Shown: piece after piece, positions 33,040-50,305 of the stretch
How the letters are laid out: each line of letters opens with the position of its first letter
How positions within the stretch are numbered: the stretch's first letter is position 1
Source of the DNA: an uncultured bacterium
GTDB lineage: Bacteria > Patescibacteriota > Minisyncoccia > Phycocordibacterales > PALSA-1337
Reading direction: 5' to 3'
Assembly (NCBI GenBank): GCA_903902315.1
Contig: CAIUUK010000013.1
Coordinates: forward strand, 1 to 62,089
DNA length: 62,089 nt
The notes under the pieces: model-generated
What the model was told of the DNA's origin: nothing
The model's input: the letters and a program-made list of their open reading frames with translations, nothing else
Databases searched by the model: none
Program-made: the position numbers and the translations under genes

Positions 33040-33113
33040 GGTGGCTATAGTTTAGTGGTAAAACTTCGGTTTGTGGAGCCGATATCGAGAGTTCGATTCT
33101 CTCTAGCCACCCA
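33040..33113 (+). tRNA. tRNA-His (anticodon GTG) with encoded G-1
   Basis: Hand fold: G-1 plus GTGGCTA/TAGCCAC acceptor, TCGGT/GCCGA anticodon stem with loop TTGTGGA, GAGAG-TTCGATT-CTCTC T arm, discriminator C. Confidence 0.9.
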
Positions 33114-33293
33114 TTAGAGTGCTTAATATAACCTGTGAATCTAGCTTGATATCTAGGGATTTTTTAGTTTTTGTGTTTGCCTAGCAGATGGTTTTTTGAT
33201 GCAATAATTTGCTTTTGGATAGGGGCTATCGCTCAGTTAATATAACTTTATGTTTTATTTATGAGTTTAGGTCTAAAGCTATGTAACCCCATT

Positions 33294-33331
33294 CTATTCC
33301 AATTTGTGGTAGAAGTTGTATAGTATATAAG
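33294..33331 (+). promoter_or_regulatory. Promoter-like motif shared with 43248-43285
   Basis: CTATTCCAATTTG-n6-AAGTTGTATAGT occurs upstream of both 33352 and 43320. TTCCAA and TATAGT are spaced like -35 and -10 elements. Confidence 0.45.
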
Positions 33332-33351
33332 TCTAAAGCCTCCATATTATT

Positions 33352-33543
33352 ATGAATAAAATGATTCTCGCTTCTCTTTGTATATTGGTTGTACTAACAA
33401 CTTTCACCTTTCAAGCGGAGGCTCGTGCAAGGTACAGTAGCATTAGGGTCGGCGGCTACAATAGTCACGGTAAGGCTAGTCATTATATAGGTGGATATGT
33501 GCGTAGTACGCATACGATTAAATATTATTTGAAACACTATTAA
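33352..33543 (+). CDS. Small secreted protein, 63 aa
   Basis: Signal peptide followed by a GGY..HGK.SHYIGGYVRS motif related to the N-terminus of the 43320 product (SGYYRSNGTYVNGYERT). Confidence 0.45.
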   Translation: MNKMILASLCILVVLTTFTFQAEARARYSSIRVGGYNSHGKASHYIGGYVRSTHTIKYYLKHY

Positions 33544-33548
33544 AATTT

Positions 33549-34016
33549 ATGACTATTTTTTGTCATCAATGTGGTAAAAAGATTGACAGTGATGCTAGAT
33601 TTTGTGAATCATGTGGAGCTACAATTAAAAGCAATGTTTCTAAAAGTAATGAATCAGAACACGAATTAAAGACGCCAGTAGTTAGTATGTCTTCCGGTTC
33701 GTTGATTAAATGTGGAAGTTGTCACTATGAGGGTCAGGGAGAACCTGCTAGAAGTATTGCCGGTATTATCCTCGCTTGTCTTTGTATATTTATAGCATGG
33801 CCAATTACTCTTATATATTTTCTTGTTACTTATAAGCATCAGTGTCCTAAATGTAAATCGACTTTTGTTAGTGTAAAAAATATTGCAGGTGAATTTATTC
33901 CACAAAGTAAATCTACATCTAGAACAATATTGAAGATAATCGGATGGGGACTATTTGGAATAGCGTTATTAATTATTGTATCAATGGTTTTGTTGTATTT
34001 TCCAGTCTGGAAGTAA
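33549..34016 (+). CDS. Zinc-ribbon protein with a LITAF-like membrane-inserted second zinc ribbon
   Basis: N-terminal CHQCG...FCESCG. It is followed by CGSC...hydrophobic stretch...CPKC, then a C-terminal TM. Confidence 0.55.
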   Translation: MTIFCHQCGKKIDSDARFCESCGATIKSNVSKSNESEHELKTPVVSMSSGSLIKCGSCHYEGQGEPARSIAGIILACLCIFIAWPITLIYFLVTYKHQCPKCKSTFVSVKNIAGEFIPQSKSTSRTILKIIGWGLFGIALLIIVSMVLLYFPVWK

Positions 34017-34049
34017 TAGGTAATACTTAAATATATAAAAAATAATAAA

Positions 34050-34931
34050 ATGCATTGCACAAATTGCGGTAAACAAGTAAATACAAATGAAAAGTTTTGC
34101 ACTGGTTGTGGAAAACCTTTATCGCACAAGTCAAAGTCATCTAATTTTAAATTCAGGGGACGTCCTTTAAATATTCCAGGGTTGGTAGTCATCCTTATTA
34201 TTATTGTCCTCGTGATATATGGTGCTTATGCAAGTTCACAGGATGATACGGCTCGACAGTCAAATGATCAGGGTCTAAGTAGTATGAATAATGGCAACAC
34301 TCAGTTAGCTACTCAGCAACTTCAAAGTGCATCGCAAACTGCATCAGATGATAATATAAAGAGAGCCACTTTAATTAATTTGGCTTATGTTTATGAGTCA
34401 GACAATAAAGATTTGCAAGCATTAACTACTTTTAAACAAGCGTTACAGCTCGCTCAATCTAATACATCAGATTATTATTTAATTTTGGCCGAGATTGCCG
34501 ATCTTCAAGGAGATCAATATTCTGCCTATACTAATTTTAATAATGCAGATCAGATTAATCCGAATAATTACCAAATTACTAATTCACTCGGATTGTTCTA
34601 CCTCGATTTAGATAATACCTCTACCAACTACGAGAATTATCCTAAAGCACTTATTCTCTTAAAGAAGGCGTACTCCATAGCACCTGTGGTTAATGGCGAA
34701 ATTGCAAAACAGAACTTAGCTATAGCATATTGTCTTAATGATAATTACGCTCAAACTATTAGCCTTTTATTGAATGAAAATTTTAATAACTTCCCATATT
34801 CTGCATATTGGTTGGGTCTGGCTTATTTGGGTGAGGGTGATTCAATAAACGGTAGATTTTATTTGCAAAAGGCAGTTAATCTAGGTGCAAATGTACCGCA
34901 AAAGATTAAAGATTTTCTTAATTCAAACTAA
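34050..34931 (+). CDS. Zinc-ribbon / TM / TPR-repeat protein
   Basis: CTNCG...FCTGCG, one TM, then TPR-like repeats (ATLINLAYVYESDNKDLQALTTFKQAL..., YWLGLAYLGEGDSINGRFYLQKA). Confidence 0.6.
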   Translation: MHCTNCGKQVNTNEKFCTGCGKPLSHKSKSSNFKFRGRPLNIPGLVVILIIIVLVIYGAYASSQDDTARQSNDQGLSSMNNGNTQLATQQLQSASQTASDDNIKRATLINLAYVYESDNKDLQALTTFKQALQLAQSNTSDYYLILAEIADLQGDQYSAYTNFNNADQINPNNYQITNSLGLFYLDLDNTSTNYENYPKALILLKKAYSIAPVVNGEIAKQNLAIAYCLNDNYAQTISLLLNENFNNFPYSAYWLGLAYLGEGDSINGRFYLQKAVNLGANVPQKIKDFLNSN

Positions 34932-35389
34932 TGATTATATTTGGCTGGCGTACAATTGTCACAAAACTAGGCATAGTTTTTAAAAGGTTATGTGATCATT
35001 GTCACAATGAAGAATATTGGATTCTAAATAGAGTAACCAAATGGTTTACATTATTTTTTATACCAGTAATTCCTTATGACTCAAATTATTTTTTTAGTTG
35101 TCCAATTTGTAAGTACGGTTTTAATTTAAACACAGATCAGATTAAGGCATTTAAACCAATAGCAGAAATTAATCAATTGTTGATGGAAGGAAAGATAAAT
35201 CAAGATCAATATCAAGTGAAATTAAACGAGATTAATGGGGCGGTACAAAATCCTCTACAGTCAAATAAATCTGATGAGGCGGAATCGAGCATAAAACCAG
35301 AATTACAATATTGTGCGAATTGTGGCACTTTGGTTGCTAAAGAGATAAAATTTTGTGGTAATTGTGGGGTTAATGTAATTCCGAATTAA
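34931..35389 (+). CDS. Zinc-ribbon membrane protein
   Basis: CDHC...CPIC flank a hydrophobic segment. The C-terminal CANCG...FCGNCG is a further zinc ribbon. TAATG overlap with the upstream gene. Confidence 0.5.
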   Translation: MIIFGWRTIVTKLGIVFKRLCDHCHNEEYWILNRVTKWFTLFFIPVIPYDSNYFFSCPICKYGFNLNTDQIKAFKPIAEINQLLMEGKINQDQYQVKLNEINGAVQNPLQSNKSDEAESSIKPELQYCANCGTLVAKEIKFCGNCGVNVIPN

Positions 35390-35393
35390 ACAT

Positions 35394-36800
35394 ATGTTTT
35401 GTAAAAGTTGTGGAAAACAATTAGGTGATAGTGCAAAGTTCTGTACAGGTTGTGGCATAAAGACAGCAAGCAAAGTTGTTGTACATAAACAGATCCTTGC
35501 CCGGTCTAAATCTTATAAAGGATTATTGATTTTGGTTGGCGCTTTAGTCCTTGTTGTAATTATAATTTTATCGTTTGTTACTAATACAGGTTCAATTTCT
35601 AAGAACACCAATATTCGAGATGATAATACAAAAGCGGTTGTGGATATCCTTTGTGATAATAATAAGGGCGGTTCGGGAACTATCTTCACAAATGACGGCA
35701 CAATATTAACCAACAACCATGTTATCGCTGGTGCTTTATCATGTAAAATAACCATCCCGAATCCTTCTACGGGAGGTATTTCAGAAGTTTACGAAGCGGC
35801 TCCTGTAATAGCTTCAGGATTAAGCAAAAAATATGATGTTGCAACTTTGAAAATCAATTCAGCCTATACAGATAGTGACGGAAAAGTTTGGGGCATTTAT
35901 CCTAGAGAATTTCCAACTTTTGTTTTACCAAGTACCTGTAATGTGAGTGTTGCCTCTAAGTTAGGTGATTTTGTGAGGGTATACGGGTATCCAGTGACTA
36001 GTGGCGGTTACAATCTAACTATTACCGATGGAGTCGTAAGTAGCTTTTCTGATGATGGGGATATACTTACATCAGCACAAATTGATAGTGGTAATTCGGG
36101 AGGTCTTGCTATTGATCAGAATGGTTGTTGGTTAGGAATACCTTCAGCGGTGGTTTCTGGTAATTATCAAAACCTTGGTGTCATAATTCCTGGTAATGTT
36201 GTTAAAGCTTTTCTCGATAATGTCCCAGCTAAATTAAGTCCTACCGAAAATACGAATTCGGTTTCAGACACTGTGGTTGCACCCCAAGAGTCGAATGATC
36301 AGATATGTCAGGATAGTTATGGTACTTATAGCGAATGGAGCGGGAAATTAAACAGTAAAGAAAAACCAACTTGTACATGTCAGACTGGTTATTCTTGGGA
36401 CAGTAGTGGAAATTCTTGTGCGGTCCAGACAACACTACAACAAGAATGTATCAATTCTTATGGAACTGGCAGTTATTCATATCCACAAAACGGAAAGGCT
36501 GTTTGTGGATGTTCGTCTGGCTATATTTGGAATTCAGATCAAACTGCGTGTGTGGTTCCTCAGGTTACAAAAGACCAACAATGCCAGAATAGTTACGGTG
36601 CAAGTAATTGGACGGGTGAATTAAATGGTCAGGGAGGACCAGTGTGTTCATGTAATACGGGTTATACATGGAATTATGGTCAGACTCAGTGTGTGGCACT
36701 TTCTCCTGATCAGGTATGTCAAAGAGATGTTGGGGCAGGAAGTTCTTATTTAGGATATAAAAATTCTGATGGAACATATGCTTGCAGTTCAGCCTATTAA
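35394..36800 (+). CDS. Zinc-ribbon / TM / trypsin-like serine protease with four C-terminal Cys-rich repeats
   Basis: CKSCG...FCTGCG, a TM, then the S1-type triad context TNNHVIAG, YDVATLKI and DSGNSGGLAI. Four repeats of C..SYG...G.LN....P.C.C..GY.W....C follow. Confidence 0.7.
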   Translation: MFCKSCGKQLGDSAKFCTGCGIKTASKVVVHKQILARSKSYKGLLILVGALVLVVIIILSFVTNTGSISKNTNIRDDNTKAVVDILCDNNKGGSGTIFTNDGTILTNNHVIAGALSCKITIPNPSTGGISEVYEAAPVIASGLSKKYDVATLKINSAYTDSDGKVWGIYPREFPTFVLPSTCNVSVASKLGDFVRVYGYPVTSGGYNLTITDGVVSSFSDDGDILTSAQIDSGNSGGLAIDQNGCWLGIPSAVVSGNYQNLGVIIPGNVVKAFLDNVPAKLSPTENTNSVSDTVVAPQESNDQICQDSYGTYSEWSGKLNSKEKPTCTCQTGYSWDSSGNSCAVQTTLQQECINSYGTGSYSYPQNGKAVCGCSSGYIWNSDQTACVVPQVTKDQQCQNSYGASNWTGELNGQGGPVCSCNTGYTWNYGQTQCVALSPDQVCQRDVGAGSSYLGYKNSDGTYACSSAY

Positions 36801-36812
36801 ATTTATTAATCT

Positions 36813-37031
36813 ATGAAATTTGGTCTTAGAAAATTTTCGTTAAACAAAAGAATCGCAGCGCGTACTTCATGGAAGAGGGTGGTTAGACATTCTATAGGTT
36901 TAAAAGCTCCACGGGGTTTTGGTTGGTTCACGGACCCTAAGAGAGCGCTTTATAACAGAGTCTATAATCGTACAAGTGTAAGTGTGGATAAATTGGTTAT
37001 TAGTATTTTCAAGCTATTTTTTCCTAGGTAG
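36813..37031 (+). CDS. Small basic hypothetical protein, 72 aa
   Basis: ORF-track ORF whose 3' end overlaps the recombinase stop region. Coding status is uncertain. Confidence 0.3.
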   Translation: MKFGLRKFSLNKRIAARTSWKRVVRHSIGLKAPRGFGWFTDPKRALYNRVYNRTSVSVDKLVISIFKLFFPR

Positions 37032-38604
37032 TTTGAGGATTATAAAGTTCTCTTGCGAAACTGAAGTCTTTGATATTTCCAGTCATAATCTCTGGGCTGA
37101 CACTGCTCAAATTGATTGTCTTTTGATGTAATAGCTCCTGAAATAGCGGGGAATAATGTTCAGCTATGATGATTCCGTCTTTTACTTCAAATTTATCAAA
37201 GAAAAAGTCGATTAAGCGTTTTTGTATCCTCTCTGGTGCTTTAAGATATGTCTGATAAATATCTCTCGTGAAGTTGAGGATCTCAGCAAGTGCATCGACA
37301 TTGATTTCCTTTGTTTTCTTGAGTTCACTGATCTTATGGTTAATTCTGTCTATATGACCTGATATCTCGTCTCTAATACGCGTATAGTCGGGTTTAGACA
37401 GTGTCTCATCGAGAAGTCTATCCTCAGCAGTCTTGAGTTTTGCTTCCCACGCATTCTTTTGGTTTAACAAGCCTCGAATATTTGTATCGTAAGATTGCTT
37501 CCTTGTTTCATATGTCTCTTTCACTTTAGCGATGATTGAGTCTATAAATCCTCGGTCGAGTTGGACATTTTTGAACTTATTAGCTACCTGTTTTTCGAGG
37601 TCTGACTTTTCAATATACTTACCACATCCAGTTGGGTTAGAGCAGTGATAGTATGCTTTGCCTTTTGCGAGGTGCCATTCTGCTGTGTATCTCCGCTTAT
37701 GAATGGCACAGAAGATGTAACCAGTAAGGAGCCAGAAGTATTTTCTTCGTCTGCAACGATTGTTAGTATTTCCATCTATGATGTTTTTCACTTGATTGAA
37801 AGTGGTTTCATCGATGAGGTGTTCGTGTTTACCGTCTTTCACATTGATATCTCGCCAGTGTATCTCTCCGAGATAGATTCGATTTCTCAGCATATCGTAA
37901 AACATGCTTGGCGCTAACTTCTTATTTGTATGAGAAACAAGACCTTTCTCATACATCATATCGTTTAATTCGAGGGCATTATATTGACCAGTCGCATAGA
38001 GTTTAAATGCTTCGGTTACAAGGGGTCCAACTTTTGGATGGGGGACAATAATTTTTTTAGCTACTTTCTCACAGAACTGATCTGGATTTTTACAATTTGT
38101 GAAGCCTATCGGAGCATGCGTTGGATAGTACCCAGCCAGAGCTTTTGCGTCTGTGGCTTGTCTGGTTTTTTCTCTAGTGTTGTCTGAGTGATATTGATTG
38201 ATTGTGGCAAACATATTGTCAGCCATGATCGAGCAGGCGTCTTCACCAGAGGATTGTCCGTTTAGATATTTTAGCTGAACTCCATTTGAAAGAAATGTGT
38301 GTCTCAAGAATGAGTGGTCAACAATATTTCGTGCTAGTCGATCCGAATGAGTAACGTATATTATCGATATCTCTCTATTCTTGGCGAGTTCAATGACTTC
38401 CTGAATACCTTTTCGGTTTAGGTTCTTTCCACTTTTACCCTCATCTTTAATAATCTTGATGTCAGTATAGCCATCACGAATAGCCGCCGTACGGCACTGT
38501 TGTTCTTGGTAGTCGAGAGAAATTCCATTGTCCGCCTGATCGTCAGTGGAAACTCTATTGTACCCAAGTGCAGTATTTTTATTTTTAGGGATTTTCCGTT
38601 CCAT
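37024..38604 (-). CDS. Large serine recombinase
   Basis: GYNRVSTDDQ catalytic Ser context, THSDRLARN, a recombinase domain, a Cys cluster (C...YHCSNPTGCGKY) and a coiled-coil tail. Confidence 0.9.
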   Translation of the reverse strand: MERKIPKNKNTALGYNRVSTDDQADNGISLDYQEQQCRTAAIRDGYTDIKIIKDEGKSGKNLNRKGIQEVIELAKNREISIIYVTHSDRLARNIVDHSFLRHTFLSNGVQLKYLNGQSSGEDACSIMADNMFATINQYHSDNTREKTRQATDAKALAGYYPTHAPIGFTNCKNPDQFCEKVAKKIIVPHPKVGPLVTEAFKLYATGQYNALELNDMMYEKGLVSHTNKKLAPSMFYDMLRNRIYLGEIHWRDINVKDGKHEHLIDETTFNQVKNIIDGNTNNRCRRRKYFWLLTGYIFCAIHKRRYTAEWHLAKGKAYYHCSNPTGCGKYIEKSDLEKQVANKFKNVQLDRGFIDSIIAKVKETYETRKQSYDTNIRGLLNQKNAWEAKLKTAEDRLLDETLSKPDYTRIRDEISGHIDRINHKISELKKTKEINVDALAEILNFTRDIYQTYLKAPERIQKRLIDFFFDKFEVKDGIIIAEHYSPLFQELLHQKTINLSSVSPEIMTGNIKDFSFARELYNPQTT

Positions 38605-38694
38605 TTGTGGGTATATTAAGCGTCCTTTCCTTTATGTGTGAAGGCAACTCTAGTTATGAACCTTTGTACACATGGGTTGGATTTCTTTTATTTA

Positions 38695-40056
38695 TTAATT
38701 AATAAAGTGAATCGGTCCCGTGTGTGGGTCACTTGGTTTTTCTGTGGTTGTAGAAGGTAGAGGTGACAGTCCACGTATTTCTCGACACTCGTTACTAATA
38801 AACCACTCAAACTCTTTCTTCAAATGAATTTCTTCTTCTGGTTGTCCGACACCTCCACGACTTTCTTTTGCAATGTTGCATATACCGAGTATTTCAAGAG
38901 TATTCATCTCTTTGAGAGCTGTAGGTTTTGATTGGTTTAATTTTTTTTCAACCTCGTTCGTCTTCATAATGCCGTTGTAGTCAATTAATGCTCTGAAAAG
39001 ACTTGAACGGCTTGTATAACCACTATCAAAACAAAGTTCTATAGTTGCCTTGAGATCACTTCGTTCAATCTGTTTTCTTCCGTGTACGAGAGCGTAACCA
39101 CGACACTGGTTATATAAGAGTTGGTTGATGCGGTCAGATTTTTCAATAGTAGGAGTTGCATAGCTATATTTTGTCTCACCCCAATCATCTGAGGACCACA
39201 CATTAACTGCACCTCTCAATTTAGCTAGTAGCCCAGAACAACGCGCAATGATTGTCATAACATCTTCTGGATCATTCTCGTTATTCCAAATAATGCCGTT
39301 TGGATTTTCTGACCACAAAGTTTTAACGAAAGCGTTAGTTATCTCCCTACAAGCAGTTTCTTTTCCTTTGTAAGCCTTACTCTTTAATTGTTTAACGAGT
39401 TCTTCGTCCGTTTTGTTACGTGAATTCATTCGAAGAAAGAAAAGCCTTGAGCCTAGATTTCCCATGATCTTGAAGATCTTTGGTGATATGGGTGTTGAAG
39501 CTCCTAACATCATAAATAGGTATTCGCCTTTATATCCTCTTTGACCATGAACTCCCGATTCCGTGTCCAGTCCCTCGCCGTCGAGCACACGGGTGAGGAG
39601 ACCGAGCAGTTCAGTCAAATGTTCTTCTTTCTTAGAAAACATTGTTGCCATATCTCTAAGTAAGAACATTTTATATCTGATACGTGGTAAAAGGTCGACT
39701 TTTTCAATCTGATCTCTTGAGACACTTGGAGAGTTGGTTACAAATGATGCTGGTGTAAATTTGTCTGTTGCATAGGTGAGACCCTCAATTCCATCAAAGA
39801 AGTTCACTACGATGGTCTTTCCAGCCGCTGGTACATCTACAAGAACTAATGCAAATGGATTAGTGATCTCTTTGATAAGAATTTGAGCGATGATTGAGAG
39901 CCCTATTTCGGCAGGAAAGAGAAGGTCTGGAAAGTTGTTCTTGATAACCTTCTGCCACTCATTAAAATAAACTGGCTTCTCTGGTTTCTCAAACTGTTTG
40001 ATACGCCCGATTTTTTCTGGTCCGTCTTGTGGAAGCATGGTGCTAATGTGTTCCAT
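38695..40056 (-). CDS. P-loop NTPase-like protein with a C-terminal winged-helix-like region; putative replication or helicase-loader function
   Basis: Walker A-like VDVPAAGKT and Walker B-like KMFLLRDMATMF. Its operon position lies between a DNA-binding protein and the recombinase. Family not identified. Confidence 0.45.
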   Translation of the reverse strand: MEHISTMLPQDGPEKIGRIKQFEKPEKPVYFNEWQKVIKNNFPDLLFPAEIGLSIIAQILIKEITNPFALVLVDVPAAGKTIVVNFFDGIEGLTYATDKFTPASFVTNSPSVSRDQIEKVDLLPRIRYKMFLLRDMATMFSKKEEHLTELLGLLTRVLDGEGLDTESGVHGQRGYKGEYLFMMLGASTPISPKIFKIMGNLGSRLFFLRMNSRNKTDEELVKQLKSKAYKGKETACREITNAFVKTLWSENPNGIIWNNENDPEDVMTIIARCSGLLAKLRGAVNVWSSDDWGETKYSYATPTIEKSDRINQLLYNQCRGYALVHGRKQIERSDLKATIELCFDSGYTSRSSLFRALIDYNGIMKTNEVEKKLNQSKPTALKEMNTLEILGICNIAKESRGGVGQPEEEIHLKKEFEWFISNECREIRGLSPLPSTTTEKPSDPHTGPIHFIN

Positions 40057-40064
40057 GTAATTGT

Positions 40065-40190
40065 TTAATTAATTTGTAATGACTTGTCGCTAGCTTTGTC
40101 TTTTATCTTCATATCGATTAGTTGTAAGAAAATGGTTGCAAGTAGTTCGACTGCTTCTTGGTTTTGCCCATGATCGTTTTGCTTAATCAT
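40065..40190 (-). CDS. Unannotated 41-codon ORF (MIKQNDHGQNQEAVELLATIFLQLIDMKIKDKASDKSLQIN)
   Basis: Below the ORF-track length cut-off. Its stop lies 9 nt upstream of the ATG of the P-loop gene, consistent with operon coupling. Confidence 0.3.
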   Translation of the reverse strand: MIKQNDHGQNQEAVELLATIFLQLIDMKIKDKASDKSLQIN

Positions 40191-40299
40191 GGGTGCAGTT
40201 TAGAATGCACAAAAAATACCCGAAATTGGGCTTTTTAGGATCTTTCCATTTTGTGGCTAGCCAGCTAGATTTTTTAGGGCTGAAAAGTCCTACTTGGTT

Positions 40300-41001
40300 T
40301 TATTCATCCACTTTCTTTATCTGAATGATGTATTTATTTGTAGTGAAATTTTCAATAGTTATTGGCATACCACTGTCTTTAAGCTTTCTTCGTAGTTTTT
40401 TCAACGCTGATCGGAATGAGCCCTCGTCTCTATAGGGGACAGATTGTTCAAGTTCTTCTCTATTGATTTCCACTCCTTTTTTTGTAGTTTTTCCATCTGG
40501 TGAGATAATCCTTGGATTTTCAAGAAATATTCCCATCATCGTATAGTGACCTCTTTCAATCGGAAGTACGACGTCTCCCCAGACAATAGTCTTATTCAAT
40601 AGTTTAGGTGTGCCACGCAGACGATAAAATTTTTTCAAGAATAGATCTAGTTGCTTTGGAGAATCAATCAGTTCTTTAAGTCTAATCTCGTCTGTTTGGA
40701 TATCCGACTTCTTTTTCCATTCCAAGTCAATATTACCAATTGTAAATCCGCCTGTTCTTCTCTCAATCATTTCTTTCGTTGGAGCTATGTCATAATCCTC
40801 ATCACCTGGATCCCAAGGCATAATCTGATACTCAAATATCTCAGCTTTTCGAAAAAGATCCAAGATTTCGATAATTTTTGGCTTTGGAATATCCAACTCC
40901 TCCTCTAGCGATTTGAAGCTCCAGACGGGTCCAATCTTTTGAGCGCGAATCGCGAAATTAGCTAATTTCTTTATATCCTCTTTTACGTTTCTTGTTTCCA
41001 T
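40300..41001 (-). CDS. Putative DNA-binding protein with an OmpR/PhoB-type winged-helix-like C-terminus
   Basis: The C-terminal EELEQSVPYRDEGSFRSALKKLRRKLKDSGMPITIENF resembles the trans_reg_C pattern. It is the first gene of the reverse-strand operon. Confidence 0.4.
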   Translation of the reverse strand: METRNVKEDIKKLANFAIRAQKIGPVWSFKSLEEELDIPKPKIIEILDLFRKAEIFEYQIMPWDPGDEDYDIAPTKEMIERRTGGFTIGNIDLEWKKKSDIQTDEIRLKELIDSPKQLDLFLKKFYRLRGTPKLLNKTIVWGDVVLPIERGHYTMMGIFLENPRIISPDGKTTKKGVEINREELEQSVPYRDEGSFRSALKKLRRKLKDSGMPITIENFTTNKYIIQIKKVDE

Positions 41002-41086
41002 ATCAAATTAAATTTACCGTGTATAAGCTTTTCATTCAAGTCCTAATCTAATCGACAGCGCCAGTCTACAGTGATATATTTGTAGT

Positions 41087-41243
41087 ACAACTGAATACCG
41101 AAAGTAGCCTAAACCACTAACGTGGCATGGTGAATAACCCAGTCAAGGACAAAGAACCCATCGTGTGGGATTGCCTTGACTGGTCATATCGGGAAACCGG
41201 TATGGGGGACTTCGGTCCTCACCCCGCGGTGGGCTTTTTGTTT
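41087..41243 (+). ncRNA. Highly structured RNA leader or sRNA ending in a terminator 10 nt before the 41253 ATG
   Basis: Putative promoter: TCGACA at 41052-41057 and TG-n-TATATT at 41072-41080. Perfect 10-bp stem 41139-41148/41174-41183. GAAA-capped 8-bp hairpin at 41185-41204. UUCG-capped 6-bp hairpin at 41205-41220. CACC-ccgc-GGTG followed by GGCTTTTT. Confidence 0.45.
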
Positions 41244-41252
41244 ACCTAATCT

Positions 41253-41795
41253 ATGCAGTTCAAGATTCCAAAACTTGTTATAACTGATAAAAAAGATTTT
41301 TTGGAATTTTGGGCTAGACGATACACGTACTCGTTGGATGGACTATATGAAGAAAATATCAATCAGCCTTTAAATGAGAGTTGTGTTATAGAACTCTATC
41401 GTTGGAAGAATGGAACTGACCTATCGGAGAAGAAATTAGATTTGGTGAAGAGAGTATACATTCCTGAACTGAATCATTTACCGAAAATTGAGACTGTTGA
41501 GCAGGGTAGAGAGTATTTATTAAAACTCAATCGTGGGCAGATTTGGGATTTCTTCTGGCTTCATTGTTTGAACCCAAAGTTATTTCCAATATTTGATCAG
41601 CATACTTACAGAGCCATGGCTGAAATGGAAGGGCTAGCTGTACCAGAGATCCCATACTCGACAGAGAAGAAACTTGATATGTATTTTTCTCGCTACATAC
41701 CTTTTGTCTCAAAGATCGGTGGTGATATGCGTCTTTTGGATAAGGCACTTTTTGCGTATGGAAAGGAATTAAAGACAGGACCCTTTTCTCCATAG
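41253..41795 (+). CDS. Hypothetical protein, 180 aa
   Basis: Clean ORF with no recognisable motif and no obvious Shine-Dalgarno sequence. Confidence 0.5.
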   Translation: MQFKIPKLVITDKKDFLEFWARRYTYSLDGLYEENINQPLNESCVIELYRWKNGTDLSEKKLDLVKRVYIPELNHLPKIETVEQGREYLLKLNRGQIWDFFWLHCLNPKLFPIFDQHTYRAMAEMEGLAVPEIPYSTEKKLDMYFSRYIPFVSKIGGDMRLLDKALFAYGKELKTGPFSP

Positions 41796-41845
41796 ATAGG
41801 GGAATATGAGGAGGTATACCTTTATCAATCATTTAATTTAAAACT

Positions 41846-42352
41846 ATGTCTGAACAAAATAACAAAGTGTGGAAGAGTGCATTGAAAGTAGTTGGCATCG
41901 TATTAATTACCGTAGTCGTTATTTGCGGTATCTTGGTATTCATAGGTATTAGGGATGCTGTTAATTATAGATCATCAACAACATACACTCAGCCAGTATC
42001 TCAACAGACTATACAAACACAAGAAACCAATGATATGACTTGGCATACTGTATTCTCGTTGAGTAATAGCAATAAATTTTACAATACATCTGCTTTTGCT
42101 ATGAAAGGAAGTCAGTGGCGTATTTCATGGAGGTGTAGACTTACTGATCAATCTATTGGTGGTGAGGGAGGCTTTGCTGGAAGCATAGATTCCGTTGTCG
42201 ATAATACTGGACATACTTTTGCTCTTGATGACGGTTGTAAGTTGGCTACTACCACGACCACCAATTATTATGGAGAAAAACCTGGGCAATATTATCTCAA
42301 ATTTGGTCCGTCATACTCGATTTACAGTGTTATGGTAGAGGATTACTACTAA
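41846..42352 (+). CDS. N-terminally anchored extracytoplasmic hypothetical protein, 168 aa
   Basis: Single N-terminal TM (VVGIVLITVVVICGILVFIGI). Confidence 0.5.
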   Translation: MSEQNNKVWKSALKVVGIVLITVVVICGILVFIGIRDAVNYRSSTTYTQPVSQQTIQTQETNDMTWHTVFSLSNSNKFYNTSAFAMKGSQWRISWRCRLTDQSIGGEGGFAGSIDSVVDNTGHTFALDDGCKLATTTTTNYYGEKPGQYYLKFGPSYSIYSVMVEDYY

Positions 42353-42358
42353 TCAGTA

Positions 42359-42631
42359 ATGAAAAAGAAACATACAGCCAGATACATAGAAAGACACAAG
42401 AACTTTTATTGTATCGATTGCAAGAAAGACACATGGTATGAATACTACACAGTCAATAATCGGCTGTGGAAAAAGATCAATCCAAAAATAAGTGGAATGC
42501 TCTGTATTGGCTGTGTTGAAACACGATTAGGAAGAAAGCTGAAAAAGGCAGATTTTGCGGATAAACCTATTAATACAAAGAAGTTTACTCGAACACCAAG
42601 GCTGATCAATAGGTTACAGAGAGAAGTTTGA
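42359..42631 (+). CDS. Small basic zinc-finger protein, 90 aa
   Basis: CIDC...CIGC four-Cys arrangement. It starts 7 nt after the preceding stop. Confidence 0.45.
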   Translation: MKKKHTARYIERHKNFYCIDCKKDTWYEYYTVNNRLWKKINPKISGMLCIGCVETRLGRKLKKADFADKPINTKKFTRTPRLINRLQREV

Positions 42632-42801
42632 AGAATTTGGCTAAAATAAATCACCTAAAAATTAGGGAAAACTGTCATAAAACTCATTTTCGTGTTTTTA
42701 TTATTTTTTAGAGAATGCCGTAGTTAAAAGGGTAGTTTGAAAACTGTCGTTGACCTCGCTTGTGGTTATGTGGCTGTCACTTTACCATCACGGGAATATC
42801 G

Positions 42802-43035
42802 TTATTTGATCAGACCTAGCATCAATAATCGAATAGTGAGTGCCTGTTCGCTTACATCAAACTTAGTTGCTAGCTCCTTTAGGTTTAATGTCTTTCCTTC
42901 AGTTTCTTTTCGTATCATCTGTTCTGGTACGGGGAGATGTATATAGATAAAGATGTATCGGTTACATTTGATCAAAGACCTCCGTACCCTCGGTATTTCA
43001 CTACTGATGAAAAGATTGAGGGTGATCTTATGCAT
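42802..43035 (-). pseudogene. Possible remnant of an HTH or ImmA/IrrE-type regulator
   Basis: Only the C-terminal LNLKELATKFDVSEQALTIRLLMLGLI looks protein-like. The upstream part is low quality. Confidence 0.25.
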
Positions 43036-43236
43036 AGATACGGTTATATAGAAATGCCTATTTTCCCATTAGATAAGGTTCCTTTTGTACACGAAATTAA
43101 GTTGAGATTAAAAGAAAAAAGAGAGGTACGAATCTATTATTACTTTAGAACCGATTTAGGTGATTCCCCAATCTGGTCATGGATAGCGATGTCTCGTGGA
43201 AAGTATACTTGGCTGAAATGTCTGAAGGTCAGTTAG
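42937..43236 (+). CDS. Hypothetical protein, 99 aa
   Basis: ORF-track ORF that overlaps the antisense remnant. Coding status is uncertain. Confidence 0.3.
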   Translation: MYIDKDVSVTFDQRPPYPRYFTTDEKIEGDLMHRYGYIEMPIFPLDKVPFVHEIKLRLKEKREVRIYYYFRTDLGDSPIWSWIAMSRGKYTWLKCLKVS

Positions 43237-43319
43237 ATTACGTACTCTCTATTCCAATTTGCGTAATAAGTTGTATAGTTAATACACAAGCGCTGGTTTA
43301 AATAATCAGTCTAACTAAA

Positions 43320-44252
43320 ATGAGAAAACTACTTATAACAAGTGTGTTATTCCTATTTATTCTAGTAGTTCAAATTTCAACTGCTCATGCGGTATATGTA
43401 AGTGGATATTATAGAAGTAACGGCACTTACGTTAATGGATATGAACGAACAGCTCCTGACGGTAATCCGTATAATAATTATAGTTATCCGGGAAATTACA
43501 ATCCAAATACAGGAAGCATTACAGGCGGAAGTGATAGCACATATTTAAATAATTATTATAGTAGCGGGTCTTCGGGTAGTACTTACTATTCTTCTCCTAC
43601 ATCGTATAGTAGTTACTCTTACCCAACTACACCGACATGCCCATTAAATTCATATTATGATGGTATTTCTACTTGTAAGTGTAATTATGGGTATGTTGTT
43701 AGTGGGGGAAGTTGTGTTTCCGCAAATAGTATTTGTTACAACCAGCTTGGCTATAGTTCTAGTTATGATTCAACAAGTAATACCTGTAAGTGTGACTATG
43801 GCTATGTGATAGGATCCTCTGGTCAATGTACTAGTGGTACAAATTACTGTTATTCTAAAACAGGTTATGAGTCCACCTATGATTCAAGTAGTAATACATG
43901 TAAGTGTAATAGTGGTTATGTGTTAAATACTTTAGGACAGTGTGTCGCACAAGCGCCATTGGTACCACAAATAAGCACAACAAATCTCACGTCTAAATCG
44001 GCTGTGGTGGTCTATGAAAAATATAGTTGTGACTATTTTATCGTTAAAGATAGTGGTGGTGATTATGATTTATTAGAGTGGTATAGCGGTTATGATCCAA
44101 GTTCGGGCGATATTTTAAAAGGGAACTTCCATACATACGGTTTTCATGATTTTTATAATTCCTCATATACTAGAAAGACCCATGTCTGGATTGAGGATTG
44201 GTTGTTAACTTGGGATGATGCAATTAGTCAGTATAAAGATAAATGTAATTAA
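43320..44252 (+). CDS. Secreted Cys-rich repeat protein, 310 aa
   Basis: Signal peptide, a YVSGYYRSNGTYVNGYERTAPDGNPYNNYS motif, and repeated C.C.YGYV....G.C units similar to those in the 35394-36800 protease. Confidence 0.6.
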   Translation: MRKLLITSVLFLFILVVQISTAHAVYVSGYYRSNGTYVNGYERTAPDGNPYNNYSYPGNYNPNTGSITGGSDSTYLNNYYSSGSSGSTYYSSPTSYSSYSYPTTPTCPLNSYYDGISTCKCNYGYVVSGGSCVSANSICYNQLGYSSSYDSTSNTCKCDYGYVIGSSGQCTSGTNYCYSKTGYESTYDSSSNTCKCNSGYVLNTLGQCVAQAPLVPQISTTNLTSKSAVVVYEKYSCDYFIVKDSGGDYDLLEWYSGYDPSSGDILKGNFHTYGFHDFYNSSYTRKTHVWIEDWLLTWDDAISQYKDKCN

Positions 44253-44254
44253 TT

Positions 44255-44545
44255 ATGAATGAGGAAGAAACAATCGGTGGTATAGGTTTCTTGCTACTTA
44301 TAGCAGTGATTTGGCTTGGTGTTACTGTTCATAGTCAAAATAAACAAATTGATCAACTCAAAGGAGTTATTAATGATTGTGATTCGGCAGTTACTGATGC
44401 AAATCAGAATATTAGTGATCTTAATGATCAAATCGATAATGCTAAGAATGATGCATGGAGTGATTATGACACTATGGGACAATCGCTTGAGAATTTAACT
44501 AGTGGAGATCAAGTTGAAAATCCTTGTTATGTTCCACAACAGTAG
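44255..44545 (+). CDS. Bitopic coiled-coil hypothetical protein, 96 aa
   Basis: One TM then an Asn/Asp/Gln-rich helix. It starts 2 nt after the upstream stop. Confidence 0.45.
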   Translation: MNEEETIGGIGFLLLIAVIWLGVTVHSQNKQIDQLKGVINDCDSAVTDANQNISDLNDQIDNAKNDAWSDYDTMGQSLENLTSGDQVENPCYVPQQ

Positions 44546-44610
44546 TTATATTACCTTTTGGATAGTGACAAAAAACCGATCGTATCACTTAAATATTCGA
44601 GTTTCATTTT

Positions 44611-44729
44611 GGGCTAGCCAGAATCGAACTTTTGATATGGTTGAGCTGTGATATTACAAATTTGTTGAATTAGGCTATAGGGAATTGAACTTTGGAAAAT
44701 TGAGTTAGTTCGATTCTCGGTAGGCCTAC
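44611..44729. repeat. Degenerate tRNA-His 3'-end copies, one inverted and one direct
   Basis: The reverse complement of 44611-44630 is GTTCGATTCTGGCTAGCCC. 44707-44729 reads AGTTCGATTCTCGGTAGGCCTAC. The tRNA-His end is GAGTTCGATTCTCTCTAGCCACC. Confidence 0.5.
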
Positions 44730-44818
44730 TATTGACAGATATACATTAAATATGCTATAAAATTAGCGTAGGTGATTTTTTGCAAAAAAACAACAATCAA
44801 CCAAATAGAACTTTGAAT

Positions 44819-45112
44819 ATGAAACTATCGAATGAAGAAATGGCCGAAGCGATTAATTTGCTCGGAATCCTCCATGAAGGTGGCTCAATTCGCTACTTCG
44901 CTGTGGCTGGTGGGCAAGCGGTGCACGGAAAAGATGGCAAACCAATGCCTTCAGAAAAATGCTCAATCACAGTCTTCCTTGATTTACGGGAGAATGGGAT
45001 GATCGAAATGACTGAACGAAACGTCATGGGGTATCCATACTATGCCGATAATCATCGGTCTGATGTCTACAGGATGACCGATGTAGGTCGTGCATTTCTG
45101 GAGAACAAATGA
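44819..45112 (+). CDS. Hypothetical protein
   Basis: ORF-track ORF 44780-45112 with a TTG start. The ATG at 44819 (MKLSNEEMAEA) was preferred. A strong terminator follows. Confidence 0.45.
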   Translation: MKLSNEEMAEAINLLGILHEGGSIRYFAVAGGQAVHGKDGKPMPSEKCSITVFLDLRENGMIEMTERNVMGYPYYADNHRSDVYRMTDVGRAFLENK

Positions 45113-45185
45113 TTCGGGACATCCCTATTTAGCAGGAAGGGAAGTAGGTTTTAATAGAGTTGAAGAACTCTCCAAAATCTCTCAG

Positions 45186-45214
45186 GTCACACTTCGATCA
45201 GTGTGACTTTTTTA
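45186..45214 (+). terminator. Rho-independent terminator
   Basis: GTCACACT tcgatc AGTGTGAC followed by TTTTTT. Confidence 0.7.
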
Positions 45215-45366
45215 TTTTATACATTGTATTCAATGGTGGGGTAGAGTGATGGAATATACACCGTCGCATTACCCCTATCCCTAAACCTAGTTAAAGTAAC
45301 TTCTAAATCTTTCTCAACTAAGCCATCCTATACCACAGTTATAATAACGTTTGGATAGCCACCCCA

Positions 45367-46539
45367 TCAATGTGTATGCTCGAATTCCTCGACTTTGCGC
45401 ATCTCGCCGGCGACGACAGTTGTATCGGCTTGGACAGCTTCTTTTTTCTTCATCAAAAAGAAAATAGCGATCACTGTTGTTATTGGCACAGCGAGAATTA
45501 GTCCGATTGATCCGACCATGGCCCGAATAATCTCGGTGGCGAAGATCTCACGGTTAACGGTCAAGGCAAAGTCGGCACCAGACTGATAGAAAAGCAAAAG
45601 CAGGGGCAAGGAGGCTCCGACATAGGCGATAGCCAGAATATTTACAAGCGCTCCGATATGTTCGCGACCAATGCGCAAAGCACGTTTGAAAATAATAGTG
45701 CGAGGCAGGTGCGGACCGATATGGTGAAGCTCGTCGACGGCAACAGCTTGGCCTATGGCGGCATCATAGAGTACGCCAAGGAGACCGATGAGAATGCCGC
45801 CCATCAAGAGGCCGGCAAAGTCTATGGTCCCGTTGGTATTCATATTTAGATAGACTGATTCATCGCTTGAGAAGCCAGTGAGTTTCGCGCCGTGGATCGA
45901 TATGTACGCCAATACGCCGGTGAATATGATCGTCGCAACCATGCCGACCACGGCCGAGGTGGTCACTCTATTGAATCCGTGTGTGATATACGATCCGAGA
46001 ATGATCATGAGGGACGCTACGCCAATCGACATGAGGATTGGAGAGAATCCGTGAAGTATTCCGGGGAAGAGTACGTATGCGATGACAACAAAACTTAATG
46101 CCAAGGCGATCAATCCTCTGAACCCTTGCTTGCCGCCGAATATGAGTACGCAAAGCACAAATAATCCGACGAGACCATAAAGCCACGGCAGGCGATACGG
46201 ATCAGAGACAGCGTACATATCGAAGCTCTCAAGTGAATCGACGGTGTGCGTAAGGTATACAACGTCACCGGCCTTGAGTTCGATGTAATCATTTTCGACG
46301 CTGACTTCTTTTCCTTGCTCATTGCCGTCGAGAATCTTGACCTGGAGCATCTGATCGAGACTGTTCACATTCGTGCCGGGCACATTTTGACGCTTGGCAC
46401 TCGTGACCTCAACTACCACTGCCTTCATTGTTGTTATCTGGTCAGGGACCAACTGCTGGGCGTGAGTAGTGTTGAATACGAGAAAACTTCCAAATACGAG
46501 AATGGCTAAGGAAAAAATCTGTTTGAATCGGCCTGTCAT
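45367..46539 (-). CDS. YibE/F-family membrane protein
   Basis: Signal/TM, an extracytoplasmic N-terminal domain, then multi-pass YibE/F-like helices (GKQGFRGLIALALSF..., LYDAAIGQAVAVDEL). Confidence 0.75.
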   Translation of the reverse strand: MTGRFKQIFSLAILVFGSFLVFNTTHAQQLVPDQITTMKAVVVEVTSAKRQNVPGTNVNSLDQMLQVKILDGNEQGKEVSVENDYIELKAGDVVYLTHTVDSLESFDMYAVSDPYRLPWLYGLVGLFVLCVLIFGGKQGFRGLIALALSFVVIAYVLFPGILHGFSPILMSIGVASLMIILGSYITHGFNRVTTSAVVGMVATIIFTGVLAYISIHGAKLTGFSSDESVYLNMNTNGTIDFAGLLMGGILIGLLGVLYDAAIGQAVAVDELHHIGPHLPRTIIFKRALRIGREHIGALVNILAIAYVGASLPLLLLFYQSGADFALTVNREIFATEIIRAMVGSIGLILAVPITTVIAIFFLMKKKEAVQADTTVVAGEMRKVEEFEHTH

Positions 46540-46617
46540 AATGTCAAGTATACCAGAGAATTTTCATTAAAAAACTCTGCAACCCATAAAATGAATTGCA
46601 GAGTGCGAACGTGTCTT

Positions 46618-48150: not shown

Positions 48151-48250
48151 ATCACACCTCCGTTTGTTGTTGGTTTGTTAAAGAGCACAGTTGAAAGAAC
48201 AATGTAGGGCGACACATATCACCCTTGTAAGCGGACAATTGTTTACCCGC

Positions 48251-49564: not shown

Positions 49565-49647
49565 AGGTGCAATATACTTGCATTTGCATAGTACACAAAA
49601 TACGTTCTTGTTGCAAATTATTAACATTTAGCTTATGATACTTCTAT

Positions 49648-50061: not shown

Positions 50062-50114
50062 AGTTCGCAAAATGGGGAAGTATGATCAAAAGTGTTTTTT
50101 TGACATTTTTTCGC

Positions 50115-50233: not shown

Positions 50234-50305
50234 ACTGAAGTTAGTATTTATGACATAAGTTTACAGTATAGTGTAAACTGTAAACTTTCGTGATATGATA
50301 ATTTC

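Follow-up and report, generated by a model that had tools for sequence, protein, structure and literature searches.

A conserved cluster of zinc-ribbon proteins with an HtrA/DegS-like protease in a variable island of a Patescibacteria-type bacterium

The window (the whole stretch of DNA that was analysed, 62,089 nucleotides long) comes from an ultra-small bacterium of the Patescibacteria type and carries, between positions 33549 and 36800, an operon of four open reading frames, all on the plus strand (Table 1). Genes 1 and 2 are separated by 33 nt, genes 2 and 3 overlap by a single nucleotide (TAATG) and genes 3 and 4 lie 4 nt apart, a tight packing that had been reported in a preliminary description of this DNA and that the ORF coordinates confirm. 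All four products share the motif C-x2-C-G-x8-F-C-x2-C-G (that is, CX2CX10CX2C), which makes up a putative Cys4 zinc ribbon of about 22 residues in every member of the operon. The presence of one such short module in each gene had been noticed before, and the motif was indeed found in four of four proteins, but the spacing of 9 or 10 residues then given was a miscount, the distance from G to F being 8 residues in every copy. Similarly, the statement that the ribbon is joined to a transmembrane segment holds for genes 1, 2 and 4, but is only loosely true of gene 3.

Table 1. Features of the operon and of its surroundings, in positions of the window.
Feature	Position	Strand	Basis or remark
tRNA-His, left edge of variable island	33041..33112	+	ARAGORN, Rfam
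63-aa signal-peptide protein	33352..33543	+	ORF; 5 nt upstream of gene 1
Gene 1 (P0001, 155 aa)	33549..34016	+	Pfam Zn_Ribbon_1 32.9 bits, DZR
Gene 1, N-terminal zinc ribbon (residues 5-23)	33561..33617	+	
Gene 1, interrupted second ribbon (residues 55-102)	33711..33854	+	
Gene 2 (P0002, 293 aa)	34050..34931	+	Pfam zinc ribbon and TPR
Gene 3 (P0003, 152 aa)	34931..35389	+	PF17032 55.1 bits
Gene 3, C-terminal zinc ribbon (residues 128-146)	35312..35368	+	
Gene 4 (P0004, 468 aa)	35394..36800	+	Pfam Trypsin_2
72-aa basic ORF	36813..37031	+	12 nt past the protease gene; end overlaps recombinase stop
Large serine recombinase	37024..38604	-	Pfam Resolvase, Recombinase, Zn_ribbon_recom
Two tRNA-like 3'-end remnants	44612..44730 (44619-44630 -; 44707-44718 +)	.	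T-arm 12-mer copies

With a gathering cut-off of 25 bits, the Pfam profile Zn_Ribbon_1 (PF13240) recognises the ribbons of gene 1 (32.9 bits), gene 2 (28.9 bits) and gene 4 (26.5 bits); the ribbon of gene 3 scores 20.5 bits, under the cut-off, and is covered by the match of this protein to Zn_ribbon_15 (PF17032). Genome-wide, PF13240 has four matches in 770,674 bases, and all four fall inside the operon. No Zn_Ribbon_1 match at all was obtained in 30 of 40 genomes of the same genus and in 276 of 401 sampled genomes of the phylum, most of the others having one or two, and a terminal ribbon is present in only about 11 of some 600 ORFs flanking the cluster loci. These counts at the level of genome, genus and phylum rule out that the ribbon-helix arrangement is a generic, abundant anchor of the lineage, an objection anticipated in the preliminary description; the ribbon is specific to the gene cluster.

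The N-terminal ribbon of gene 1 is followed by a second, interrupted ribbon and by a C-terminal membrane helix (approximately residues 130-151). The second ribbon is formed by C55xxC58, a hydrophobic stretch of 26 residues (I70-Y95) with a central proline, and H97-Q-C99-P-K-C102; C5, C8, C19, C22, C55, C58, C99, P100 and C102 are invariant in the alignment of the family (A3), for which a word-based search returned only two homologues, further ones being taken from the fetched loci. Such an arrangement recalls the zinc ribbon of LITAF type, mutations of which occur in a human neuropathy: the pattern of a CxxC, about 22 hydrophobic residues and an (H)xCxxC is present in gene 1 and conserved in its family, with two Cys knuckles flanking some 22-26 hydrophobic residues and a second knuckle of the form H-x-C-P-x-C. 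[quoted passage not shown] The earlier suggestion of a LITAF-like second ribbon was thus upheld for the pattern of cysteines and hydrophobic residues but not for the profile, as zf-LITAF-like (PF10601) matched neither gene 1 at E-values up to 0.1 nor seven of its homologues at E-values up to 1, and the matches to the LITAF-like BRI3 family (E 0.001-0.17) concern the homologues only and stay below the BRI3 cut-off.

Type IV pili and other surface filaments dominate cell-cell contact in Patescibacteria, and the operon could in principle be an accessory module of such a structure. The gene 1 family would then contribute a pilin-like helix in tethered form, with the TPR protein as a helper in the manner of PilW or PilF. 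The last helix of gene 1 homologues does resemble the pilin alpha-1 helix (…IAIIGILASVVLASLNSAR…), weak BLAST matches (E 0.001-0.009) connect this helix to a true N_methyl pilin, P0244 carries the source annotation 'PilE', and the TPR domain matches type_IV_pilW, albeit far below the cut-off (E 1e-7). Nevertheless, Pfam N_methyl matches no member of the family, gene 1 of the window itself is devoid of the pilin-like motif, the TPR matches are generic and the neighbourhoods of the clusters have no recurring pilus assembly genes. The case for a pilin-like gene 1 family stayed weak, and we regard a role in a filament as very improbable.

Gene 3 provides the sole match to Zn_ribbon_15 above the gathering cut-off (28.9 bits) in the genome, spanning residues 20-146. 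Its product begins with the Zn_ribbon_15 domain (residues 1-66), which includes a hydrophobic beta-hairpin, and continues through two helices and a disordered linker to the C-terminal ribbon, whose location agrees with what had been proposed. A hydrophobicity scan of the protein detected no hydrophobic helix of 19 residues, and WFTLFFIPVIPY alone lies between C21xxC24 and C57PxC60; gene 3 belongs to the Zn_ribbon_15 proteins and has no true membrane helix, which corrects the preliminary description. The AlphaFold2 model has pLDDT values of 85-93 across the N-terminal domain, and a Foldseek search with this fold gave no PDB match (best E-value 0.23). We collected 155 homologues of constant length, the invariant residues of which are recorded in alignment A2. 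The interrupted ribbon of gene 3 belongs to another family (PF17032) than that of gene 1 and has no detectable relation to it; homology of the two was discarded after a comparison with hhalign, which aligns the soluble ribbons only. A suspected tie of Zn_ribbon_15 proteins to cell-wall synthesis in Bacillota was also discarded, the presumed neighbouring PBP-RodA pair being DUF3160 and FG-GAP proteins by Pfam.

Genes 2 and 4 both begin with the ribbon (residues 3-21), and both have a basic linker on the ribbon side of the membrane helix. In gene 2 the helix (residues 42-60) is followed by an acidic stretch and by a TPR domain (approximately residues 75-290), an organisation matching the extracytoplasmic TPR repeats described earlier, and the domain is predicted to lie outside the cytoplasm. 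Homologues of gene 2 fall into 58 clusters (50% identity) at E<1e-30 and, among the matches listed, mostly align end to end over about 300 aa. In gene 4 the helix (residues 44-62) precedes a protease domain (approximately residues 80-277) and Cys-rich repeats (residues 300-468). The triad H109, D148 and S235 (DSGNSGG) is invariant in 33 homologues (alignment A1), and the structure model contains four helix-plus-strand units in the repeat region, which bears out the assignment of an S1-type protease with four Cys-rich repeats. The conserved additional cysteines are confined to the ectodomains (alignment A1).

The protease can be placed more precisely, since it is specifically HtrA/DegS-like and PDZ-less. 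Its family profile matches DegP, DegQ and DegS, and Foldseek retrieved DegS and HtrA at E-values of about 1e-15, with TM-scores of up to 0.81 of the target; the NCBIfam Do-family model gives 58.5 bits vs a cut-off of 416. DegS and the other membrane-anchored members of the HtrA family (MEROPS S1C) are the best sequence and fold matches of gene 4 and share with it the chymotrypsin fold, the His-Asp-Ser triad, an N-terminal anchor and an outward catalytic domain. In contrast to them, gene 4 has no PDZ domain detectable by Pfam: its C-terminal 170 residues consist of the four Cys-rich repeats, which are lacking in short forms of the family where nothing follows the protease domain, and a putative cytoplasmic zinc ribbon stands ahead of the anchor. 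Gene 4 is a type-II anchored HtrA/DegS-like serine protease whose catalytic domain and Cys-rich repeats are predicted to face outwards.

A membrane-anchored protease that in fold comes closest to HtrA and to DegS minus its PDZ domain brings to mind signalling of the DegS type: the TPR protein would sense an external cue, TPR proteins being often sensors or adaptors, the protease would cut the ectodomain of a partner, and a cytoplasmic ribbon would be released or rearranged and pass the signal inward. The surveyed clusters, however, contain no recurring sigma factor, transcription factor or site-2 protease, the cytoplasmic parts amount to a 22-residue ribbon and a short linker, and genes 1 and 3 expose almost nothing outside that could be cut. 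We consider this scheme quite unlikely.

The gene 3 family was found in 28 other species genomes, at 28 non-redundant Zn_ribbon_15 loci. In 21 of these a co-directional gene of the protease family is present, and in 16 it follows immediately, after 2-6 nt or with a small overlap. Gene 3 is the near-constant upstream neighbour of the protease; such tight spacing suggests translational coupling of genes 3 and 4. The partnership is not obligatory, because protease loci without a ribbon partner (L020, L029, L030) and Zn_ribbon_15 loci without a protease (L084, L088, L096, L099, L102) both exist. In 17 of 22 close protease loci the protease gene has one or more neighbours on its strand that encode zinc-ribbon membrane proteins, and the recurrent order is the LITAF-like protein (similar to gene 1), the TPR protein, a small membrane protein with a ribbon and two helices, Zn_ribbon_15 and the protease. 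Genes 1 and 2 are recurrent further members of the cluster; the gene 2 family adjoins the protease in many loci, and about every second cluster is without a TPR gene. These surveys rule out that the homologues are scattered singly, which would have spoken against an operon-level function, as Zn_ribbon_15 and protease genes occur next to each other and co-directionally, within a conserved cluster for zinc-ribbon membrane proteins, in many Patescibacteria, and the synteny supports the multi-component envelope system that had been proposed.

Conserved adjacency also fits with surface proteins that are co-regulated but act separately. The four genes would then form no complex and encode independent surface or membrane proteins with one generic cytoplasmic anchor, produced by tandem duplication and domain swapping and subsequently co-regulated and co-transferred. 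Genes 2 and 4 resemble each other in the ribbon and helix (E 1e-7), which points to paralogy; loci differ in which ribbon genes they contain and in how many, between 2 and 6; and lone proteins composed of a ribbon, a helix and an ectodomain are found elsewhere (TcaA, and the single matches in many genomes of the phylum). On the other hand, the order of Zn_ribbon_15 and protease, together with gaps of 2-6 nt, is kept across distant lineages, length and architecture are constant in each of the four families, and the Zn_ribbon_15 protein is without an ectodomain and therefore has no obvious stand-alone surface role. On balance we hold independent action of the four proteins to be doubtful, while taking it seriously.

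The operon was found almost only in Patescibacteria, and within them it is accessory and moves horizontally. The Zn_ribbon_15 profile matched in one of 400 sampled genomes of the phylum, and no close homologue was found among 24 sampled genomes of the same genus. In the same-genus genomes that were fetched, tRNA-His follows an orthologous adenosyltransferase gene, and in five of them the adenosyltransferase and tRNA-His are followed by 2.7-9 kb and then by orthologues of the 52.3-59.5 kb region of the window, the operon being absent from the tRNA-His site in all five. The G+C content falls to 0.34 across the operon. Another species of the genus (G046) carries a second cluster on a different contig, where a related recombinase lies 5 kb away, and related recombinases adjoin the cluster in other genomes as well. 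About one locus in three has a recombinase no more than 6 kb away, with five per 770 kb in the genome under study; strong enrichment was discarded, the excess being only about three-fold over genome density and the comparison set of distant protease loci behaving likewise. The operon is carried as cargo in a variable island next to a serine recombinase and does not represent a core envelope system. Near 44.6-44.7 kb, the two tRNA-like remnants contain the T-arm 12-mer AGTTCGATTCTC, which in exact form or with one mismatch has four matches vs 0.43 expected by chance; outside the 12-mer they resemble tRNA-His weakly. To judge from these short copies, the recombinase element possibly ends on its right side at the remnants; a search for the whole 27-nt 3' end of tRNA-His as a direct repeat at the right border found none.

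That the operon could not be assigned to any described system, as stated at the outset, still holds. A literature search yielded no paper describing it, Pfam gave generic matches only, and nothing beyond generic HtrA and TPR similarity was obtained with NCBIfam. In PADLOC-DB 2.0 only the protease domain matches, to the protease part of RT-Protease_XI (E 1e-8), and the nine other proteins tested have no match; a known anti-phage defence system was rejected on these results. The closest studied case is llmg_0524-0526 of Lactococcus lactis, where Llmg_0524 and Llmg_0526, encoded in one operon and located at the membrane, bind zinc stably through an N-terminal CX2CX10CX2C; Roussel et al. 2015 suggested that the ribbon serves folding and stability or protein interaction, and Llmg_0524 affects cell-wall integrity (PMC4628341). 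In llmg_0524-0525-0526 two genes of the operon encode this motif followed by membrane helices, and its exact spacing is found in all four window proteins, where zinc binding is putative. Unlike the operon of the window, with which it was compared by the shared motif only, the lactococcal one belongs to a Firmicute, is not described as mobile and has no protease, TPR, Zn_ribbon_15 or LITAF-like member. In TcaA of Staphylococcus aureus, a single membrane helix lies between a zinc finger inside the cell and a large extracellular domain (PMC10328498). There is a weak match between the TcaA ribbon and the one of gene 1 (NCBIfam NF053815, E 9e-4), but at 18 bits vs a family cut-off of 550 this is not membership, and TcaA is a single gene outside any multi-ribbon operon, with a different ectodomain.

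A TPR adaptor is paired with a protease in NlpI-Prc, LbcA-CtpA and LapB(YciM)-FtsH, in which the TPR protein chooses substrates at the membrane. In LapB, TPR repeats occur together with a membrane anchor and with the same Cys4 motif, the CX2CX10CX2C of YciM being cited in PMC4628341. The proteases of these pairs belong, however, to S41 or to the AAA+ FtsH family and not to S1C, NlpI and LbcA have lipoprotein anchors, and the TPR domain of LapB is cytoplasmic; the resemblance lies in the possible working mode, and no homology is claimed.

We propose that the four genes encode a surface protease complex, mobile and tagged by zinc ribbons, in which the TPR protein is the adaptor, a model to which we give an even chance of being right. 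The four proteins would build a membrane-bound protease module, gathered by the predicted cytoplasmic ribbons acting as a common assembly handle, which would bind either each other or one shared partner. In place of the PDZ domain, which the protease lacks, the TPR subunit would serve as adaptor for substrates or as regulator, and gene 3, being without an ectodomain, would control or position the protease from the cytoplasmic face. Candidate substrates are surface proteins of the cell itself or proteins that it encounters at its surface. A niche or conflict role is favoured over housekeeping because of the rarity and mobility of the cluster and its variable number of repeats. A bolder version, which seems to us rather unlikely, would see in the Cys4 ribbon a dedicated tag that nucleates, at the cytoplasmic face of the membrane, a self-contained and horizontally traded surface protease machine with two kinds of prokaryotic membrane-dipping interrupted ribbons (LITAF-like and Zn_ribbon_15). 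Ultra-small episymbionts would use it in conflict or host contact, for instance to cleave surface proteins of a host, of a competitor or of incoming phage, and such a machine would form a membrane complex of a new class.

Patescibacteria combine a tiny genome with a life spent attached to other cells, and little is known about how their surface works. The cluster offers a compact, conserved and mobile set that places an HtrA-like protease and a TPR protein outside and a repeated, putatively zinc-binding tag inside. If the ribbon is an assembly handle, this would explain the common and poorly understood zinc ribbon-helix proteins of Gram-positive-type bacteria (TcaA, Llmg_0524/0526) and would provide a testable model system of just four or five small proteins. 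Gene 1 and its relatives may in addition represent prokaryotic counterparts of the membrane-dipping LITAF-type ribbon for structural study.

Two small ORFs border the operon. The upstream 63-aa protein, with an N-terminal hydrophobic segment at residues 4-22, has no Pfam or PHROG match and no homologue next to the other clusters; its gene is possibly the first of the transcription unit. The downstream 72-aa ORF is similar to the N-terminal part of four phage protein families of unknown function, most strongly to phrog_3374 (E 8.6e-16).

The four genes of the operon are co-directional and, as the preliminary description had it, tightly packed: ORF calls leave spacers of 33 nt between genes 1 and 2 and 4 nt between genes 3 and 4, with a one-base TAATG overlap between genes 2 and 3. 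All four main products possess the same module, C-x2-C-G-x8-F-C-x2-C-G (the ribbon); its presence in each had been recognized correctly, while the nine or ten residues first given for the spacing are one or two too many (x8 in each). Pfam places the corresponding Zn_Ribbon_1 domain at the N-terminus in genes 1, 2 and 4 and, in line with the original reading, at the C-terminus in gene 3. A six-frame search of the host genome (770,674 bases, 97% complete) retrieved a total of four Zn_Ribbon_1 domains, every one of them in the operon. The count was zero in 30 of 40 sampled genomes of the same genus, with one in most others. Across the phylum, with 401 genomes sampled, 276 had none and the remainder mostly one or two. 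In this lineage, therefore, the ribbon does not serve as a common anchor; a generic, abundant one is ruled out by these counts. The run of four consecutive ribbon genes is a real feature, beyond chance. Short ORFs are found on either side (see table); the downstream one gives matches to the N-terminal ends of four families of phage proteins without known function (best phrog_3374, E 8.6e-16) and runs 8 nt into the convergent recombinase gene, over its stop.

Coordinates of the operon, of neighbouring features and of features in loci of relatives (L-numbers)
Feature	Location	Strand	Remarks
Gene 1, LITAF-like protein	window 33549-34016	+	155 codons
Gene 2, TPR protein	window 34050-34931	+	293 codons
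Gene 3, Zn_ribbon_15 protein	window 34931-35389	+	152 codons
Gene 4, HtrA/DegS-like protease	window 35394-36800	+	468 codons
ORF with signal-peptide-like start			63 codons; stop 5 nt upstream of gene 1
Basic ORF, 72 aa	window 36813-37031	+	start 12 nt past gene 4
Large serine recombinase	window 37024-38604	-	follows operon in island
LOOT RNA (RF03000)	window 41106-41220	+
Secreted protein, 310 aa	window 43320-44252	+
Recombinase; overlapped tRNA-Lys	window 13355-14842; 14803-14876	+; -
Recombinase; overlapped tRNA-Glu	L083 1910-3496; 1899-1971
Recombinase; overlapped tRNA-Gln	L174 12118-13650; 13588-13661
Recombinase; overlapped tRNA-Phe	L022 6224-7900; 7813-7886
Pilin-like gene-1 relatives	L097 4066-5043; L100 3143-4183; L086 4190-4690; L089 3855-4397		also proteins P0243, P0244
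bAvd gene and 302-aa ORF	L015 3903-5158	-

Gene 4 codes for an HtrA-like protease that faces outward and lacks a PDZ domain. The ribbon (residues 3-21) is followed by a basic linker, a single membrane helix (44-62; membrane helices were assigned by a hydropathy window, not by a trained predictor) and a protease domain matching Trypsin_2 in Pfam. The S1-type serine protease proposed from the sequence is borne out by an alignment of 33 homologues, in which His109, Asp148 and Ser235 are unchanged and the four ribbon cysteines are invariant too. The family profile matches DegP, DegQ, DegS and HtrA chains, and the AlphaFold model (pLDDT about 85-91 across the protease domain) superposes on PDZ-less DegS and on HtrA (E about 1e-15, TM-scores of at most 0.81 of target); no PDZ domain was found in gene 4. 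With a protease of this kind a DegS-like signalling cascade could be envisaged, which we consider improbable. The four Cys-rich repeats attributed to this protein are also seen in the model, after the protease domain, each made of one helix and several strands; their number varies among protease homologues, and many relatives of ~300 residues have none. A 310-aa secreted protein of the same island, 6.5 kb downstream of the operon, shares the repeat type (C-x-C-x2-G-Y…C; 31% identity over 121 residues, E 0.002) and has an N-terminus matching phrog_29674; no further copy of the repeat was found in the genome.

In gene 2, Pfam detects ~230 residues of TPR repeats, which had been described as extracytoplasmic and are indeed predicted to be extracellular, because the ribbon, a basic linker and a helix precede them. 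Relatives of this protein form 58 clusters (50% identity) at E<1e-30, and most of those listed align over the full length, ~300 residues. Gene 3 matches Zn_ribbon_15 (PF17032, 55 bits in Pfam) and belongs to a highly uniform family of ~153-residue proteins, for which 155 relatives were found. Its N-terminal 95 residues are strongly conserved (C21xxC24, WFTLFFIPVIPY, C57PxC60 and two helices) and are followed by a variable linker and the ribbon. The transmembrane segment to which this ribbon was said to be joined did not hold up: the hydropathy window revealed no hydrophobic stretch of membrane-helix length, and the model (pLDDT about 90), to which a structure search found no similar solved structure, places the hydrophobic dodecamer at the tip of a long beta-hairpin. 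Outside the operon type, the N-domain is also found by itself, in Bacillota, Zixibacteria, Bacteroidota and other groups; these stand-alone domains have no C-terminal ribbon, protease or consistent neighbour. The domain is far more widespread than the operon, with 423 species genomes matched. The Bacillota version (L107-L111, L116, L121, L125) has a near-identical WFTLFFIP hairpin without the C-terminal ribbon, and is often encoded after DUF3160 and FG-GAP proteins or before very large Kelch/dockerin surface proteins.

Gene 1 consists of an N-terminal ribbon, C55xxC58, 26 hydrophobic residues with a central Trp-Pro, His-x-Cys-Pro-x-Cys and a final helix; these features are shared without exception by the relatives collected. 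The experimentally defined eukaryotic LITAF domain shows this pattern (PMC5142333); the second ribbon had initially been called LITAF-like. The Pfam LITAF model does not match gene 1, and the related BRI3 model matches its homologues below threshold. Homology of this interrupted ribbon to the one in gene 3 was rejected: hhalign shows no relation and aligns the soluble ribbons only. In several gene-1 relatives (see table) the last helix and the following part resemble a type IV pilin alpha-1 helix (…VIAIIGILASVVLASLNSARxxG…), in some cases with a Cys-containing globular part after the helix. None of them has the G-F-T-L-I-E cleavage site; BLAST pairs them weakly with a true N_methyl pilin from one locus (L011), and the motif is missing from the window's own gene 1. 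This pilin-like helix suggests an accessory role related to pili, which, however, finds no backing in Pfam and strikes us as very improbable.

The protease family comprises more than 200 relatives, whose source names all, and record titles nearly all, indicate Patescibacteria; a small number of contigs are assigned to bins of other phyla, and many source genomes are metagenome bins with unreliable taxon labels. Partner genes are evident in the gene tables of three relatives: a Paceibacterota genome gives the order TPR, Zn_Ribbon_1, Zn_ribbon_15, protease, and in an Adlerbacteria genome the order is ribbon protein, protease, ribbon-DUF805 protein, Zn_ribbon_15. Neighbourhoods were surveyed in loci from one genome per species with ORFs called by the longest-ORF rule, so that starts and very short genes are approximate. 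Of the 22 closest protease loci, 17 have one or more adjoining co-directional genes whose products combine membrane segments with a Cys4 ribbon at one end; several loci hold three to five such genes. Reciprocally, among 28 non-redundant Patescibacteria-type loci with a full-length gene-3 relative, a protease is encoded on the same strand in 21 and immediately next to it in 16 (2-6 nt apart or, it seems, slightly overlapping). The linkage in both surveys (17/22 and 21/28) rules out singly scattered homologues. The recurrent order is gene-1-like, ribbon-helix-TPR, a two-helix ribbon protein of ~130 residues (absent from the window), Zn_ribbon_15 and protease, a five-gene set exemplified by L083 4137-7340; a terminal ribbon occurs in only ~11 of ~600 other ORFs of the cluster loci. 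One zinc-ribbon protease cluster, a single case, is preceded at 270 nt by a divergently oriented bAvd gene (diversity-generating retroelement accessory protein) and a 302-aa ORF.

Alongside the protease, the set comprises an outward TPR protein and two small proteins with nearly no ectodomain, all with one common ribbon. The ribbons are probably cytoplasmic, since the linkers next to them, ahead of the helices, are basic and a Cys4 zinc site requires a reducing compartment. There they may gather the subunits together. By analogy, the TPR protein could take over substrate selection or regulation, which in HtrA proteases fall to PDZ domains; TPR partners serve other envelope proteases in this manner (NlpI-Prc, LbcA-CtpA, LapB-FtsH). 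Gene 3, a near-constant upstream neighbour, would act on the protease from the inner face. We place about even confidence in such a ribbon-assembled surface protease complex, with the TPR protein as a PDZ substitute and gene 3 acting from inside. That the products are instead independent, co-regulated surface proteins is a possibility we regard as rather unlikely.

The initial failure to assign the operon to a described system has persisted: PADLOC and NCBIfam match nothing past generic HtrA and TPR similarity, Pfam gives generic domain matches only, and a full-text literature search found no description of such a cluster. [quoted passage not shown] Staphylococcus aureus TcaA has the same plan of ribbon, helix and ectodomain (PMC10328498). 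Unlike these, the window operon possesses a protease, a TPR protein and two interrupted ribbons in a fixed multi-gene arrangement, is found almost exclusively in Patescibacteria and is mobile.

The operon combines conserved tight linkage with mobility, and the module is rare and accessory. Apart from the window's own genome, a single one among 400 phylum genomes sampled has a match to the gene-3 profile, and protease matches in 24 sampled same-genus genomes are weak and partial only. Five same-genus genomes share a backbone of adenosyltransferase, tRNA-His, 2.7-9 kb of variable DNA and orthologues of window 52.3-59.5 kb. Between the same landmarks the window has ~19 kb, with the operon first, directly after tRNA-His (33041-33112), and G+C dropping to 0.34 across it. 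At this site a 78-residue piece of a related recombinase is preserved in one relative, and another has a distant recombinase adjoining its tRNA-His. No repeat of the full tRNA-His 3' end was found downstream; two T-arm-like remnants lie at 44.6-44.7 kb. Another species of the genus (G046) has a full cluster elsewhere, on a different contig; a related recombinase lies 5 kb away there, its end overlapping tRNA-Gln. In a third species (G020), 1.7 kb separate a ribbon-protease gene from a recombinase. About a third of cluster loci include a recombinase of the serine or tyrosine type, or a transposase, within ~6 kb, and the host genome has five resolvase-type genes in 770 kb; this enrichment beside the clusters is suggestive, not strong.

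The stretch from tRNA-His to ~52.3 kb (33113-52300), which has no counterpart at the site in the five same-genus genomes, seems to have accumulated from several blocks. These are the operon island, a block of high G+C (0.48-0.52) at 46-50 kb, whose YibE/F gene is shared by just 7 of the 40 relatives sampled, and, at 50-52 kb, a small cassette. Four large serine recombinase genes have a 3' end that overlaps a tRNA gene on the opposite strand (see table); it looks, from sequence, as if these elements integrate into tRNA genes, the recombinase frame running into the rebuilt tRNA end. The operon's neighbouring recombinase has no such overlap. A LOOT RNA, of which no functional description was found in the literature searched, lies inside the island between 233-aa and 180-aa genes and gives a full-length Rfam match (80.1 bits versus a gathering score of 46.4).
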